DNA of 16,073 nucleotides from a virus. Lineage: Duplodnaviria > Heunggongvirae > Uroviricota > Caudoviricetes. Positions 1 through 16,073 of this stretch are shown here, in pieces. The notes below the pieces were generated by a model. That model saw nothing but the letters and a program-made list of their open reading frames with translations, was not told the DNA's origin and searched no databases. Positions within the stretch are counted from its first letter, which is position 1, and every line of letters starts with the position of its first letter. A program made the position numbers and the translations under genes. The stretch is taken from the IMG/VR virus record IMGVR_UViG_2923307698_000005. The stretch is one strand, 5' to 3'.

Positions 1-1461
1 ATGAAAAAATTACTGCGTCTTTTTTTCCCGCTCTCGCTGCGGGTACGTTTTCTGTTGGCAACGGCAGCGGTAGTACTGGTGCTTTCGCTTGCCTACGGAA
101 TGGTCGCGCTGATCGGTTATAGCGTCAGTTTCGATAAAACTACGTTTCGGCTGTTACGTGGCGAGAGCAATCTGTTCTATACCCTTGCGAAGTGGGAAAA
201 CAATAAGTTGCATGTCGAGTTACCCGAAAATATCGACAAGCAAAGCCCCACCATGACGCTAATTTATGATGAGAACGGGCAGCTTTTATGGGCGCAACGT
301 GACGTGCCCTGGCTGATGAAGATGATCCAGCCTGACTGGCTGAAATCGAATGGTTTTCATGAAATTGAAGCGGATGTTAACGATACCAGCCTCTTGCTGA
401 GTGGAGATCATTCGATACAGCAACAGTTGCAGGAAGTGCGGGAAGATGATGACGACGCGGAGATGACCCACTCGGTGGCGGTAAACGTCTACCCGGCAAC
501 ATCGCGGATGCCAAAATTAACCATTGTGGTGGTGGATACCATTCCGGTGGAGCTAAAAAGTTCCTATATGGTCTGGAGCTGGTTTATCTATGTGCTCTCA
601 GCCAATCTGCTGTTAGTGATCCCGCTGCTGTGGGTCGCCGCCTGGTGGAGTTTACGCCCCATCGAAGCCCTGGCAAAAGAAGTCCGCGAACTGGAAGAAC
701 ATAACCGCGAATTGCTCAATCCAGCCACAACGCGAGAACTGACCAGTCTGGTACGAAACCTGAACCGATTGTTAAAAAGTGAACGCGAACGTTACGACAA
801 ATACCGTACGACGCTCACCGACCTGACCCATAGTCTGAAAACGCCACTGGCGGTGCTGCAAAGTACGCTGCGTTCTCTGCGTAGTGAAAAGATGAGCGTC
901 AGTGATGCTGAGCCGGTAATGCTGGAGCAAATCAGCCGCATTTCACAGCAAATTGGCTACTACCTGCATCGTGCCAGTATGCGCGGCGGGACATTGCTCA
1001 GCCGCGAGCTGCATCCGGTCGCCCCACTGCTGGACAATCTCACCTCAGCGCTGAACAAAGTGTATCAACGCAAAGGGGTCAATATCTCTCTCGATATTTC
1101 GCCAGAGATCAGCTTTGTCGGTGAGCAGAACGATTTTGTCGAGGTGATGGGCAACGTGCTGGATAATGCCTGTAAATATTGCCTCGAGTTTGTCGAAATT
1201 TCTGCAAGGCAAACCGACGAGCATCTCTATATTGTGGTCGAGGATGATGGCCCCGGTATTCCATTAAGCAAGCGAGAGGTCATTTTCGACCGTGGTCAAC
1301 GGGTTGATACTTTACGCCCTGGGCAAGGTGTAGGGCTGGCGGTAGCCCGCGAAATCACCGAGCAATATGAGGGTAAAATCGTCGCCGGAGAGAGCATGCT
1401 GGGCGGTGCGCGGATGGAGGTGATTTTTGGTCGCCAGCATTCTGCGCCGAAAGATGAATAA
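1..1461 (+). CDS. phoQ: Sensor histidine kinase PhoQ, complete (486 aa)
   Basis: Full-length ORF starting at ATG at position 1. The translation has an N-terminal transmembrane segment, a periplasmic sensor region with an acidic patch (EDDDDAEM), a second transmembrane segment, a HAMP-like linker, the phospho-acceptor His box ([10 protein letters not shown]) and ATPase motifs ([20 protein letters not shown]). Recognised from memory as enterobacterial PhoQ; not checked by search. Confidence 0.95.
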
Positions 1462-1580
1462 ATATGTCCTTTTATCACCATATCAAGACAAGCCATTGAT
1501 TTAATTAAATAATCTTCACTGAAAAAAGTGCCAAAAATCGCAAATTGACTACACCATTAACTACACCGTTCGGTGCACCG

Positions 1581-1610
1581 TATGAAACAACGTGGAACAA
1601 ATAGACACAA
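1581..1610 (+). repeat. Site A: three 10-bp-phased direct repeats with an AACAA core (tatgAAACAA cgtgGAACAA atagACACAA)
   Basis: Read directly. Shares the 15-mer AACAACGTGGAACAA with site B (9049-9063). Confidence 0.4.
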
Positions 1611-1923
1611 GAAATATACAGGCGGATCATCTTTCCAGGGGGAAGCGCACCAATTCATGAGGGGCGTTAATGTCTATATGGGGATCCCCACCTACCGGAA
1701 TTTTTTTCCGGTTAAACGTTAATCAGGCTGGTGGGCTTTACCTGTTCGGTAGGTGTTATGATAATCGTAATACCTTTCCCCCAATGGGGTAAAAGCATCA
1801 ACCGTAACGAAAGTCGTTATGGTTGCCACTGATACCCCAAATTTGGGTATCACGAGTAAGCCCCAAAATCTGGGTGTTACTCTTACTACCCAAACTACGG
1901 GTAGTTTCCGTAGTTTCATGGTC

Positions 1924-9044: not shown

Positions 9045-9080
9045 CAGCGAACAACGTGGAACAACCACGAACAAATAATT
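9045..9080 (+). repeat. Site B: 10-bp-phased GAACAA direct repeats (gcGAACAAC gtgGAACAAC cacGAACAAA) upstream of the capsid operon
   Basis: Read directly. Lies just downstream (minus sense) of the terminator at 9090-9116 and about 200 bp upstream of the capsid start. A candidate promoter (TTGTTC, 16 nt, TATTTT on the minus strand) sits next to it. Confidence 0.4.
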
Positions 9081-9089
9081 TACAAAACA

Positions 9090-9116
9090 TGACAAAAAGC
9101 CGGATTGCTCCGGCTG
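9090..9116 (-). terminator. Rho-independent terminator ending the replication/early operon
   Basis: 7-bp stem AGCCGGA/TCCGGCT with loop TTGC, followed on the minus strand by UUUUUGUCAUGUUUUG. Starts 6 bp after the PerC-like stop. Confidence 0.55.
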
Positions 9117-13365: not shown

Positions 13366-13445
13366 AACGGCTCCTAGTTTACGTTGTTGGTTAGAAGCCC
13401 CGTTACTGCTCCTACAGTGCGGGGCTTTGCTTTTTGTGTTGATTG

Positions 13446-13491
13446 TGTGTAATGTGTCATTACACATAAATACATTACATGAGGTGTAATT
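13446..13491. promoter_or_regulatory. Paired operator-like inverted repeats in the divergent control region: TGTGTAATG-TGT-CATTACACA (13446-13466) and CATTACA-N5-GTGTAAT (13473-13491)
   Basis: Read directly. Four copies of the TGTAATG/CATTACA half-site between the minus-strand early operon and the plus-strand Arc-like gene, overlapping the Arc-like gene's ribosome-binding site. Confidence 0.45.
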
Positions 13492-13494
13492 AAC

Positions 13495-13674
13495 GTGTCA
13501 ATACACAAAAACGAAAGGCGTGGTAATCCTCCGTTCCAGTTCCGTTTAGATCCTGACTTACGGGAAAAGATGGAAAAGGCACAACAACAGGACGGCGATG
13601 ATTCTCTTGCTGCCTGGATAAAGCGAATAATCCGCAAAGAATTACAGCAACGCGGCATAGAACCCAAAGGATAA
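13495..13674 (+). CDS. Arc-family ribbon-helix-helix DNA-binding protein (59 aa, GTG start)
   Basis: Not in the ORF track (under 60 aa). GTG at 13495 with GAGG ten nt upstream. Translation VSIHKNERRGNPPFQFRLDPDLREKMEKAQQQDGDDSLAAWIKRIIRKELQQRGIEPKG matches the Arc-type pattern: a PPxFxLRL beta-strand followed by two helices. Confidence 0.6.
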   Translation: MSIHKNERRGNPPFQFRLDPDLREKMEKAQQQDGDDSLAAWIKRIIRKELQQRGIEPKG

Positions 13675-13731
13675 AAACTATCAGCGCCGTGGTGTGAGGA
13701 ACTACGGCGCATTTCTTTACAGGAGTAGACA

Positions 13732-13917
13732 ATGAACAACGAAGAATTACGGGAAATCGCATTATCCATACTTGAAAGACAGGTAGAAAAAAAATTAAGA
13801 GAAATGGATGAAATGCCTGACCATGAACAGGAAGCAAGGCCAAAAAGATTTGCCCTTGAGGATTTTCTTAAAAATTGCCCAAGAAAGATGAGATCGTGGC
13901 GTTGTTGTCCGCCCTGA
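13732..13917 (+). CDS. Hypothetical small protein (61 aa), cotranscribed with the Arc-like gene
   Basis: ATG with AGGAG six nt upstream; charged, helical-looking translation; followed by an intrinsic terminator. Confidence 0.5.
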   Translation: MNNEELREIALSILERQVEKKLREMDEMPDHEQEARPKRFALEDFLKNCPRKMRSWRCCPP

Positions 13918-13994
13918 TGACAGATTTGCCAACCAGCCCAAAATGTGGCATCGTTGTCGATGCATAGTGTAATCAACATGTATATCATATTTTT

Positions 13995-14021
13995 GCGACC
14001 ATCATAGGTCGCATTTTTTTT
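13995..14021 (+). terminator. Rho-independent terminator of the plus-strand Arc-like operon
   Basis: Stem GCGACC/GGTCGC with loop ATCATA, followed by ATTTTTTTT. Confidence 0.6.
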
Positions 14022-14074
14022 GCCTGTAATCCGGCAATTGTGGCGCTTCTTCACACAGTTGATATAATTCCAAT

Positions 14075-14145
14075 GCTCATATTTATTTTTTGTGCAGCAG
14101 GTTAATCGTTCACAAAGGCGCTCAGGTAACTGGGCGCTTTTTGTT
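14075..14145 (+). ncRNA. Candidate small RNA, about 70 nt, with its own promoter and terminator
   Basis: Extended -10 promoter TGaTATAAT at 14060-14068, predicted start near 14075, and a strong intrinsic terminator at 14118-14145 (stem GCGCTCAG/CTGGGCGC with one G-U pair, loop GTAA, then TTTTTGTT). No plausible ORF inside. Confidence 0.3.
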
Positions 14146-14291
14146 ATGCCTGAAAAACCCCAATTTTGTTGTTTTTCAGTTTCACCAGGGCGAACGAATC
14201 CCCGCCCACGTTCTGGCGTATATTCAATCTTCATGGTTATAGCTCTGTGTTCAGATGATTGATGTGTGGCGGCTGTGTGCCGCCAGCGTGA

Positions 14292-14480
14292 TTAATGAAC
14301 TGCCTTGCAGCTATCCTTCCAGGCCAGAACCTCGGATAAAGACCAGCCAACGGAACGACCGCCAAGTTTACGACGTGATGGGAATTGTCCGGCCTTTTCC
14401 AGGCGGTAGCGACACGTACGGCTAAGGCCGGTTAGTTTTTTGCATTCTTTTTCACGTATAAACCGATCAGTGCTTAACAC
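14292..14480 (-). CDS. alpA: AlpA-family transcriptional regulator / excisionase-like protein (62 aa, GTG start)
   Basis: Translation LTGLSRTCRYRLEKAGQFPSRRKLGGRSVGWSLSEVLAW matches the AlpA/Xis-type helix-turn-helix pattern. The ORF has no internal ATG; the GTG at 14480 is preceded by AGGGGG. Lies immediately downstream of the integrase gene. Confidence 0.8.
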   Translation of the reverse strand: MLSTDRFIREKECKKLTGLSRTCRYRLEKAGQFPSRRKLGGRSVGWSLSEVLAWKDSCKAVH

Positions 14481-14750
14481 TATTGCCCCCTTTCGTTTCT
14501 TAAAGAGTCATCAGGTGTCTTATTGTGTCGTATTGTTCCCGCTAGAGTGATGAATGGCAAATACTGAGGATGTATGATTTACAGAAAATGAAACAGTAAG
14601 AATAAAATCTTTTAAATTCATGTTAATACAAAGGCATAAAATATTGTTCCATGCCTTTTTTCTCGCTCTTTAAAGAGTGATTCGCTAGTGTATAAAAACC
14701 AGTAACACATTAAAAATCAGCCACTTATAAATCCGTACGCTTTTTCGCCT

Positions 14751-14800
14751 CTTGTTCGTAGTTGTTCCACATTGTTGCTCATTGTTGCACGTTGTATCTG
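14751..14800 (-). repeat. Site C: four to five 10-bp-phased (C/G)AACAA repeats on the minus strand (gtgCAACAAt gagCAACAAt gtgGAACAAc tacGAACAAg)
   Basis: Read directly. The minus-strand string GTGGAACAACtACGAACAA matches site B (GTGGAACAACcACGAACAA) at 18 of 19 positions. Lies 44-93 bp downstream of the integrase stop. Confidence 0.4.
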
Positions 14801-14843
14801 TTCGCATATCCAGTATGCGCATACTGAAAAAACACGAAAAAAA

Positions 14844-16073
14844 TTATTTTCTTCTGGCTACTGGTAGTGCGGTTACGTTTTCATGTGTTCCCGCCAGTAT
14901 CCCTAACCGCTCCATCCACATATCCAGCGCATTGCGTTTAGCATCCAGATAACGGGAATGATTATAAACTCGCTGCATTCCTGGCATCTGGTGGCCTGTA
15001 AGCTGCTCCACGACGTGAGGATCCACGCCTAAATCGTTCAGCATCGTTGTAAAGGTGCGCCGGATGTCATGTAGTGACCAGTGAGGGTGATTTAGCCTCC
15101 TGTGCGCTAATCTGCCGTACTGCGACACGCTTGTTTCCTGTTTCACTTCCCCCAGCAATAAGCCCGTGTGCCTGTTCTGCTCCACCAGCTGCGTGACGAA
15201 CGGCAGTATTGCTTCCGGTATGGGCCGGAATATGGCTACCTTCGTTTTGCTGTGCTCCTTCGGAACAGTCCAGAGCATTTCGGTAAAATCCCACTCGCCG
15301 ATCTCCGATAACCTAAGTTCGACCGTCCGGCATCCGAACACAATCAGGAGGCGGATTAGCGCGATGTAGTAGGGGGAGAATATTTTTTTGTCCAGTGCCT
15401 GCAATAATTCGCCAAGTTCTTTGTTGCTTAAGACACGCTCGCTTATATCCGGTTTTTTCCCAACGTCCGCCACACTCATATCATCAAGAACGTTGCTGAT
15501 TGCATAGCGCCGCTTCCGGCAGAACTTAAGCGCCTGCTTGCATGTCTGTAGCAGGAACCCGGCGGAAACAGGGGCTTGCTTTGCCACCCGATCAAAACAG
15601 GCCAGCCAGTGCCGTAGCTCGCATTTATCCAGCGGCATAGGGCCAATGTGCTGTATTACGTGATTATTTAGCCGCTTTTTCAGTGGGTCATAATCCACAC
15701 GGTTTTCCTTTGCGTACGACTCAAGCCAGTAGGTGAGCGCATCACCAACCGTTACCGGCTTTAACGCTTCCTGTACGGTGTAATTAAGCTCATGACGTGG
15801 ATTTTTCCCCTCTGCCAGCCATGCGCGACACTGGGCGGCTTTTTCCCTGGCTGATTTCAGGCTCAGATCAGGATAATTTCCCAGCTTAATGCGTTCCGGT
15901 GGTGCCCCCCTTCCCGTTCCGGCCCTGTAAGTGAAATACCAGGTTAAAAGGCCACTGGTTGAATGCCTGACGCTCAGGTTTCCACCGTCATTAAGAAAGG
16001 CTGTTTTTTGGGCGGGTGTGCCGTTGATTTTCCTCAGCTGTGTATCGCTCAGTTTGTTAAGTGCTCTGCTCAT
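14844..16073 (-). CDS. Tyrosine site-specific integrase, P4-like (409 aa)
   Basis: Catalytic-domain motifs near the C-terminus (HDIRRTF, GHQMPGMQRVYNHSRY) and an N-terminal DNA-binding region. The ATG is the reverse complement of the last three bases of the window. Confidence 0.93.
   Translation of the reverse strand: MSRALNKLSDTQLRKINGTPAQKTAFLNDGGNLSVRHSTSGLLTWYFTYRAGTGRGAPPERIKLGNYPDLSLKSAREKAAQCRAWLAEGKNPRHELNYTVQEALKPVTVGDALTYWLESYAKENRVDYDPLKKRLNNHVIQHIGPMPLDKCELRHWLACFDRVAKQAPVSAGFLLQTCKQALKFCRKRRYAISNVLDDMSVADVGKKPDISERVLSNKELGELLQALDKKIFSPYYIALIRLLIVFGCRTVELRLSEIGEWDFTEMLWTVPKEHSKTKVAIFRPIPEAILPFVTQLVEQNRHTGLLLGEVKQETSVSQYGRLAHRRLNHPHWSLHDIRRTFTTMLNDLGVDPHVVEQLTGHQMPGMQRVYNHSRYLDAKRNALDMWMERLGILAGTHENVTALPVARRK

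Follow-up and report, generated by a model that had tools for sequence, protein, structure and literature searches.

Which DNA elements control alpA, the gene for the master activator of a phage-inducible chromosomal island (PICI), and could the region ahead of this gene be the place where induction of the island is decided? The window analysed here is the whole 16,073-nucleotide stretch of IMG/VR record IMGVR_UViG_2923307698_000005. Its region 14481-14843 (363 bp) is the spacer between the integrase gene int and alpA, which, according to domain matches, gene order and RefSeq homologues, are co-oriented and lie inside a PICI. A preliminary description of this DNA had named the spacer as the likely decision point for induction. 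That proposal is supported by homology to the island EcCICFT073 together with published reporter data, by conservation of the predicted alpA promoter in 54 of 54 relatives and by compensatory changes in a hairpin. We therefore consider it probable (roughly 0.7) that the region is the cis-regulatory region of alpA, in which a terminator or insulator for int is followed by a weak, activator-dependent promoter with flanking operators. The spacer and its role as an induction switch are already known from sister elements, and what is new here is a parts map based on conservation. No cis-element map of the alpA control region was found in the literature searched, including the EcCICFT073 and EcCIMP1 papers.

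In EcCICFT073, a reporter fusion of the alpA promoter region was activated by AlpA and induced by the helper phages λ and φ80, and not by the SOS response, and the int promoter did not respond to AlpA (PMC6092414). A fragment of the EcCIMP1 alpA region from -449 to +50 showed the same behavior (PMC11773190). An alpA mutant of EcCIEDL933 gave no induction, and alpA is thus required. By analogy with these homologues, the present spacer would have promoter activity, be activated by AlpA and be inducible by helper phages. To compare the spacer among relatives, 69 IMG/VR loci with a close alpA, four E. coli/Shigella loci and EcCICFT073 were collected, giving 54 distinct upstream sequences with identities to the window from 99% down to 64%; 15 representatives were used for finer comparisons. 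An AlpA scan of genome contigs had returned only three loci, two of them unrelated, and IMG/VR and E. coli genomes were used instead; a word-indexed protein search with AlpA yielded only 19 matches. Among 5426 complete E. coli genomes, megablast found the spacer in 695 and blastn in 871, and in none of them did it carry an annotated feature.

The candidate sigma-70 promoter that had been proposed for alpA is present on the minus strand at 14532-14560, with TTGCCA (14560-14555), a 17-nt spacer and AACAAT (14537-14532). The promoter scanner reported it as one of only two matches in 14100-15100 and predicted a start near 14525. It matches the sigma-70 hexamers at 9 of 12 positions, and its spacer, TTCATCACTCTAGCGGG, falls within the 16-18 nt range. 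TTGCCA-17-[A/C]ACAAT was retained in all 54 variants, despite an indel of 5 or 10 bp just downstream. The scanner also found this promoter independently in two divergent variants, L002 and L012 (with a TG extension in L012), and it was the only promoter-like site common to these two and the window. The weak -10 element would fit a promoter of alpA that depends on activation. Between the -10 and the repeated motif nearest to alpA (window 14509-14531), the variants differ by exactly 10 (or 5) bp; the 10 extra bases are one more GACACA-type unit, and this stretch behaves as an expandable repeat.

Upstream of the promoter, the hairpin AGGCAT/ATGCCT was confirmed at 14632-14637 and 14651-14656, where these arms are extended to a perfect inverted repeat of 8 bp, AAAGGCAT/ATGCCTTT (14630-14637/14651-14658). 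On folding, a 12-bp stem, AAAGGCAUGGAA/UUUUAUGCCUUU, with a 5-nt loop, CAAUA, was obtained on the minus strand at 14630-14658, terminator-like in both directions. The T-runs described on both strands are there as well: T6 follows the hairpin on the plus strand (14656-14661) and TTTGTATT follows it on the minus strand. Read as RNA, the int/alpA strand has an A6 run before the hairpin and UUUGUAUU after it, and the opposite strand has U6 after it. The minus-strand fold, at -12.5 kcal/mol, stood out from chance (z = -3.9, equalled by 0 of 200 shuffles); the plus-strand fold had -8.0 kcal/mol. The variants were folded one by one, as MAFFT displaced the 5' arm by one column in the distant group, which made pair counting from the alignment unsuitable. 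Each of the 15 variant types formed the hairpin, with compensatory exchanges of A-T for G-C pairs and with G·U intermediates; the fold on the int/alpA strand, which the G·U pairs favor, was more stable in eight types, about equal in five and less stable in two. Most variants have the interrupted U-tract UUUGUAUU on the int/alpA strand. The terminator scanner called the hairpin at 14630-14658 on neither strand of the window. 'Bidirectional terminator-like' is a fair description of this hairpin.

The third component is a short repeated motif, ACTCTTTAA. The copy reported at 14500-14510 reads TTAAAGAGTCA; the other is present as TTAAAGAGTGA but starts at 14670 (14670-14680), one base from the 14669 given in the preliminary description, and the perfect palindrome around it, CTCTTTAAAGAG, lies at 14666-14677 as stated. 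The distal copy belongs to a block on the minus strand, GCGAATCACTCTTTAAAGAGCGA (14663-14687), which holds ACTCTTTAA (TTAAAGAGT on the plus strand, 14670-14678) and the 12-bp palindrome. The proximal copy (14498-14510, minus strand) lies in the alpA leader and reads GACTCTTTAAGA on the alpA strand; it holds TTAAAGAGT on the plus strand (14500-14508) and a 9-bp palindrome, TCTTAAAGA (14498-14506). It is about 8 nt upstream of the alpA ribosome-binding site, AAAGGGGG (14486-14493, minus strand, read from the sequence), whose counterpart in relatives is AAAGGGG or GGAGG. All 54 distinct spacers contain both copies of the ACTCTTTAA-type motif, the distal one always 118-119 bp ahead of the -35. The proximal copy lies 27-30 nt ahead of the alpA start codon and 52, 57 or 62 bp from the -35; with the distance to the start codon fixed and that to the -35 variable, it keeps its place relative to the ribosome-binding site rather than to the promoter. 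Among the 15 representatives, the proximal ACTCTTT was unchanged. The distal motif varied between ACTCTTTAA, ACGCTTTAA, ACGCGTTAA and ACTCTTAAA. The distal palindrome was kept through paired changes in one subgroup (CTCTTTAAAGAG to CGCTTTAAAGCG, for example CACGCTTTAAAGCGTG) and lost in the EcCICFT073 subgroup. L083, a metagenome contig with a 65%-identical alpA, carries a palindrome, TTCTTTTAAAGAA, directly before its ribosome-binding site, and its upstream sequence otherwise has no evident similarity to the window spacer.

Chance statistics from the window sequence gave marginal support for these features. The exact 9-mer TTAAAGAGT occurs twice in 16 kb, both times in the spacer, and with one mismatch allowed there are 4 occurrences versus 2.3 expected. 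In 1000 dinucleotide shuffles of the region, at least three repeated 9-mers appeared in 6%, at least two perfect 12-bp palindromes in 0.4% and a perfect 8-bp stem in 8.6%; another exact 9-mer, TATTGTTCC, is also repeated in the region. The real support, as judged by comparing sequences, is conservation across the 54 distinct relatives.

The elements in the model that we favor are all present in the window and all conserved; we infer the protein-site assignments, the transcription start, the termination and the role of the motif. Reading in the direction of transcription, int ends at 14844 and is followed by a five-unit repeat array (14747-14796), which would be bound by AlpA with one copy per helical turn, and by a site resembling that of integration host factor (IHF; 14715-14727) that could bend the DNA. 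The distal ACTCTTTAA palindrome block (14663-14687) directly precedes the 12-bp hairpin (14630-14658), which would act as an intrinsic terminator or insulator, blocking read-through from int into alpA, and could stop transcription from the opposite direction too. About 70 bp past the hairpin, the weak sigma-70 promoter (14560-14532) would need activation owing to its poor -10, and would produce a leader of about 45 nt, in which the spacing between the proximal ACTCTTTAA/TCTTAAAGA element and the ribosome-binding site is constant. This element may serve as an operator or roadblock on DNA, or may pair with the ribosome-binding site in RNA. On helper induction, a phage factor would raise transcription from the alpA promoter, and AlpA would then reinforce its own synthesis and trigger excision, replication and packaging. 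For the question of how helpers induce Gram-negative PICIs, the map of promoter, hairpin, two motif copies, IHF-like site and arrays shared with the attachment (att) arms and the capsid operon gives targets for mutagenesis and footprinting in EcCIEDL933 or EcCICFT073, and may help the search for the helper-phage inducer.

Several observations weigh against parts of this model. The -10, AACAAT, is poor, and another promoter is possible. Two further array-type repeats, GGAACAAT and GACACAAT, overlap the -10 and the predicted start and would suggest repression rather than activation, and with 190-240 bp between it and the -35, the upstream RAACAAY array is rather distant to activate the promoter directly. 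No U-tract follows the hairpin on the int/alpA strand in the subgroup of L002 and L066-L071, and the scanner, applied to L002, predicts a terminator there on the opposite strand only. The invariant flank of the hairpin is the A6 run, that is, U6 on the opposite strand, and together with the U-tract missing from one subgroup this makes the main direction of termination uncertain. Finally, the distal motif changes T to G where the proximal copy is unchanged, which argues against one protein reading both copies alike.

Against this background, other explanations of the same elements were weighed. The two TTAAAGAGT/TCTTTAAAGA copies might be an operator pair for one dimeric protein, either a repressor from the PICI or host or an inducer from the helper, that clamps or loops the promoter, with its release or replacement as the induction event; we regard this as possible but doubtful. 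The copies lie about 150 bp upstream and 20 bp downstream of the start, both are conserved in the 54 variants, and they are palindromic or partly so (12 bp in the distal copy, TCTT-A-AAGA in the proximal copy and TTCTTT-T-AAAGAA in L083). It would also suit Gram-negative PICIs, for which the 2018 paper knew of no repressor and had not identified the inducer of the helper (PMC6092414), and there is a precedent in P2 Cox, which activates satellite P4. However, the spacing between the copies is 170, 175, 176, 180 or 181 bp, which does not keep helical phase, and the distal copy drifts (T to G, with the palindrome lost in the EcCICFT073 subgroup) whereas the proximal one is constant. Moreover, there is no candidate protein, and two copies do not make a Cox-type array. 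Going one step further by analogy with P2 Cox acting on P4, paired TCTTTAAAGA-type palindromes might be the cis target by which Gram-negative PICIs sense the helper phage, with a repressor removed by the phage or a phage inducer as the partner. We think this improbable; if true, it would point to the missing induction mechanism of a large satellite family. It is rather unlikely, though somewhat less so than such sensing, that the proximal copy acts in RNA, where CUCUUU in the leader would pair with the AAAGGG ribosome-binding site and restrain translation until this pairing is released, while the distal copy forms a separate small stem-loop beside the terminator. In favor of this, the motif stays 27-30 nt from the start codon while its distance to the promoter changes, minimum-energy folding of the leader yields the CUCUUU:AAAGGG stem for the window and for several variants, and the paired changes in the distal palindrome (T to G with A to C) are stem-like. 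In other variants, however, CUCUUU has a different partner at minimum energy, AAAGAAUG within the coding sequence, and the L083 motif pairs with itself. Shuffled sequences fold as well as the small distal stem (z = -0.8), and any pyrimidine run pairs with a ribosome-binding site, which leaves this comparison with low power.

The remaining explanations seem to us still less probable. The hairpin could mainly terminate a divergent plus-strand transcript that starts from TTTACA at 14578-14583 and yields a small RNA roughly 50-60 nt long. The invariant flank is the plus-strand U6 tail, a plus-strand terminator is called in L002, and the invariant TTTACAGA (14578-14585) is -35-like and stands back to back with the alpA promoter. 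This is nevertheless quite unlikely: no acceptable -10 is found (AATAAA stands at 17 nt; TAAAAT does not come until 19 nt and is confined to the window), the scanner gives no plus-strand promoter here, in 8 of 15 variants the G·U pairs favor folding of the int/alpA strand, and Rfam gives no match. That the motif repeat is functionless, a chance repeat kept by low divergence of the spacer, is very unlikely in our estimation. It would agree with a repeat that is not beyond chance in the window sequence by itself and with the equally repeated 9-mer TATTGTTCC, but ACTCTTT is invariant in spacers of 64-74% identity while adjoining positions vary, and a related palindrome occupies the same place in L083, which is otherwise dissimilar upstream. 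An antitermination switch of the Pseudomonas aeruginosa AlpA or phage Q type would place a promoter upstream of the hairpin (for example TACACT, 14687-14692) and a terminated leader starting at the distal motif, through which AlpA or a helper factor would allow read-through. In its favor, a conserved block, TTTTTATACAYTRGCGAATCAC, immediately precedes the distal motif and hairpin, the order of motif, hairpin and gene resembles a leader-terminator arrangement, and P. aeruginosa AlpA is an antiterminator. Yet there is no credible -35 and the scanner finds no such promoter. P. aeruginosa AlpA is much larger than the 62-aa Phage_AlpA domain of the PICI protein and its GGGACG element is absent here, and the hairpin lacks a U-tract on the int/alpA strand in one subgroup, so that we give this switch very little credence.

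Turning from these alternatives back to the favored cis-regulatory reading, the spacer contains further elements. AT-rich blocks upstream of the -35 (14577-14624, minus strand) were recognized as invariant runs in the 15 representatives, namely ATGAATTTAAAA at 14610-14621, TTTTATTCT at 14599-14607 and TCTGTAAA at 14578-14585 (about -60 to -53), and are a candidate activator or UP-element region. The repeats GGAACAAT and GACACAAT, 10 bp apart at 14522-14539 on the minus strand, were seen in the alignment; there are only two copies, weak when taken alone. The IHF-like site on the minus strand, TAAGTGGCTGATT (14715-14727), is followed by a T-tract and has one mismatch to the consensus YAANNNNTTGATW (WATCAANNNNTTR). 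A scan located it in 46 variants, at 167-170 bp (in most cases 168) ahead of the -35, and the alignment shows it in the others. Its TAA and TGATT are invariant while the NNNN positions vary, and the consensus is exact in EcCICFT073-type variants; the pattern alone is no more frequent in the window than expected by chance. Just past the int stop codon, a perfect 16-bp palindrome, CAGTATGCGCATACTG (14811-14826), follows T-runs on the int strand. Together with its flanking bases it folds at -12.1 kcal/mol (z = -3.3) and is terminator-like on neither strand. It was found only in close relatives; EcCICFT073-type spacers carry extra ACAAC repeats there.

The array at 14747-14796 on the minus strand ('site C') was found by a chain scan and consists of five RAACAAY repeats with a 10-bp period, with five to six copies in all relatives. 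The same scan gave three such arrays in the window (1586-1615, 9050-9100 and 14747-14796) and none in 200 shuffles. The most likely binder of these arrays is AlpA, one copy per helical turn, because the arrays flank the att core on both arms, as expected of an excision factor site, and precede the capsid operon. The known roles of AlpA suit this too: it is required for both excision and PICI gene expression, and it activates its own promoter. The array before the capsid/packaging operon hints that the late genes are under the control of the same protein as alpA and excision. The array at 9050-9100 has five units on the plus strand, in the gap ahead of that operon, and adjoins a clear minus-strand terminator, GCCGGA-GCAA-TCCGGC (9099-9114), followed by T5.

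By comparison with the empty K-12 site (window 1455-1620; L001 4095-4280), the att core is approximately ATAAA(A)TATGTCC and overlaps the phoQ stop codon (window 1461-1470), with the right-hand junction about 190-205 bp past the window end. Both arms carry a doubled ACTACACC (window 1548-1567), and 13-15 bp further on there are three to four RAACAAN units with a 10-bp period (window 1586-1615); this layout, a doubled ACTACACC and then a RAACAAN array, is the same in O157 and CFT073. The doubled ACTACACC would be the better candidate for the target of the integrase arm domain. An exact IHF consensus lies at window 1489-1501.

Other candidates were tried for the spacer and rejected. DNA looping between the motif copies was dropped, as their spacing is out of helical phase among the variants, and so was a single conserved fold of the leader RNA, as minimum-energy folds differ among them. 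Activation of the lambda CII type, which uses TTGC-N6-TTGC at the -35, was rejected on reading by eye, the second TTGC being absent, and a sigma-54 promoter was likewise rejected by eye. A LexA box at CTGTAAATCATACATC was rejected in the same way, and the published induction is independent of SOS (PMC6092414). A 45-aa open reading frame (ORF) at 14685-14822 with a sub-threshold Pfam zinc-ribbon match was rejected as a small gene in the spacer since its frame is not kept: its counterparts have 33, 45, 52, 66 or 91 aa or are absent across the variants, and the start codon is lost in EcCICFT073-type spacers. No reading frame on either strand of the spacer was conserved among the relatives. Rfam gave no match in the window, and only chance-level matches were returned at E up to 10 in 14250-14950.

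As for the element itself, phoQ occupies positions 1-1461 of the window on the plus strand, and a mobile element that reads along the minus strand makes up the remainder. By domain matches and gene order, it encodes an integrase, AlpA, a RepA-type helicase, a single-stranded DNA-binding protein (SSB), capsid, protease, portal, head completion protein, connector, HNH protein and the terminase subunits TerS and TerL, along with small genes. A set of integrase, AlpA, RepA-type helicase, SSB and a full head-and-packaging module beside phoQ matches the description of capsid-forming PICIs (cf-PICIs), and on this gene content the element is identified as an EcCIEDL933-type cf-PICI with phoQ/roxA as its insertion site. 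The prototype EcCIEDL933 is a 15.4-kb element of strain EDL933 whose int, alpA and rep are like those of EcCICFT073, and RefSeq annotation of O157:H7 genomes gives an identical layout from phoQ to roxA. A literature search for start-site data on the O157 element 'SpLE2' gave nothing useful. The upstream gene of the pair, int (14844-16073, minus strand), encodes a P4-type tyrosine integrase of 409 aa with Pfam Arm-DNA-bind_3 and Phage_integrase domains and a homologous RefSeq locus. The alpA gene (14292-14480, minus strand) starts with GTG and encodes 62 aa (Pfam Phage_AlpA, E = 5.7e-17), the master activator and probable excision factor; RefSeq homologues share its coordinates, and only 4 of 62 residues differ from EcCICFT073 AlpA. 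PDB entry 8c3t, a 73-aa 'AlpA family phage regulatory protein', matches the window AlpA at E = 1.8e-6, and no paper on this entry was found in the literature searched.

Downstream of alpA, a 286-aa ORF on the minus strand (13374-14234) has no Pfam match and overlaps small plus-strand ORFs (13495-13674 and 13732-13917), whose counterparts in relatives are annotated as YlcI/YnfO family or hypothetical. A strong plus-strand terminator (13994-14021) also lies within it, and O157 RefSeq annotation has an Icd-like pseudogene at roughly this stretch. It is unlikely that the whole 286-aa ORF is a genuine gene.

Among more distant alpA homologues (66-72% identity), L077, L078, L079, L081 and L082 have one or two extra genes of 110-302 aa between int and alpA, none with a Pfam match, and a gap of only 50-95 bp to alpA. 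A long int-alpA spacer is therefore specific to one branch. In the set from the word-indexed search, the repeated motif was absent from most distant alpA homologues, and only L083 was informative. That contig (1295-1769) has a canonical terminator right after int, ACAGATAGC...GCTATCTGT and then T7, and other direct repeats, with ATCTAATCAAAGCT present twice and repeats of GGTCAGGAC.

Among known systems, the alpA promoter regions of EcCICFT073 and EcCIMP1 are alike in lying between co-oriented int and alpA, and EcCICFT073 also shares the insertion site at phoQ/roxA. The EcCICFT073 spacer aligns with that of the window block by block (promoter, both motifs, hairpin, array and IHF-like site), although overall identity is only about 71% (L029-type), and the window differs in having the 12-bp and 16-bp palindromes and in lacking one 10-bp unit after the -10. 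The hairpin resembles bidirectional intrinsic (Rho-independent) terminators, having a stem-loop with a G+C core between an A-run and a U-rich run, so that hairpin and U-tail occur on both strands. However, its stem is A/U-rich (3 G-C of 12 pairs) and moderately stable (-12.5 kcal/mol), and the U-tract on the int/alpA strand is interrupted (UUUGUAUU) and absent in one subgroup; its role as a terminator here is predicted.

P. aeruginosa AlpA shares its name with the PICI protein and is likewise a positive regulator near a promoter with a hairpin close by. It differs in having at least 142 residues and eight helices and in inserting into the RNA exit channel of RNA polymerase, whereas the protein here has 62 aa. 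It also needs GGGACG between the -35 and -10 and a downstream terminator. Antitermination of this or the Q type was rejected: the promoter spacer TTCATCACTCTAGCGGG contains no GGGACG, the hairpin is upstream of the promoter, and the 62-aa Phage_AlpA protein is not a large protein with an N-terminal ring.

The best functional analogy for activation by a helper is offered by P2 and P4, where a helper-encoded factor, P2 Cox, switches on a satellite promoter through TTAAA(G/C)NC(A/C) boxes. At P4 PLL, P2 Pc and attP, a small excision and regulatory protein acts on repeats spaced 10-11 bp apart, at att sites and promoters. A Cox-box array, which needs four to six copies 10-11 bp apart, was rejected for the motif, of which there are only two copies. 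TTAAAGAGT has the first six bases of the Cox box but matches it at 7 of 9 positions, and its copies are 170 bp apart rather than six in phase. In addition, the helpers of the EcCIEDL933-type island, HK106 and HK446, are of a different phage type, described as Siphoviridae and not P2-like. The RAACAAY arrays are unrelated to the Cox box in sequence, but they share with the Cox arrays the layout, the 10-bp period and the placement on the att arms and before operons.

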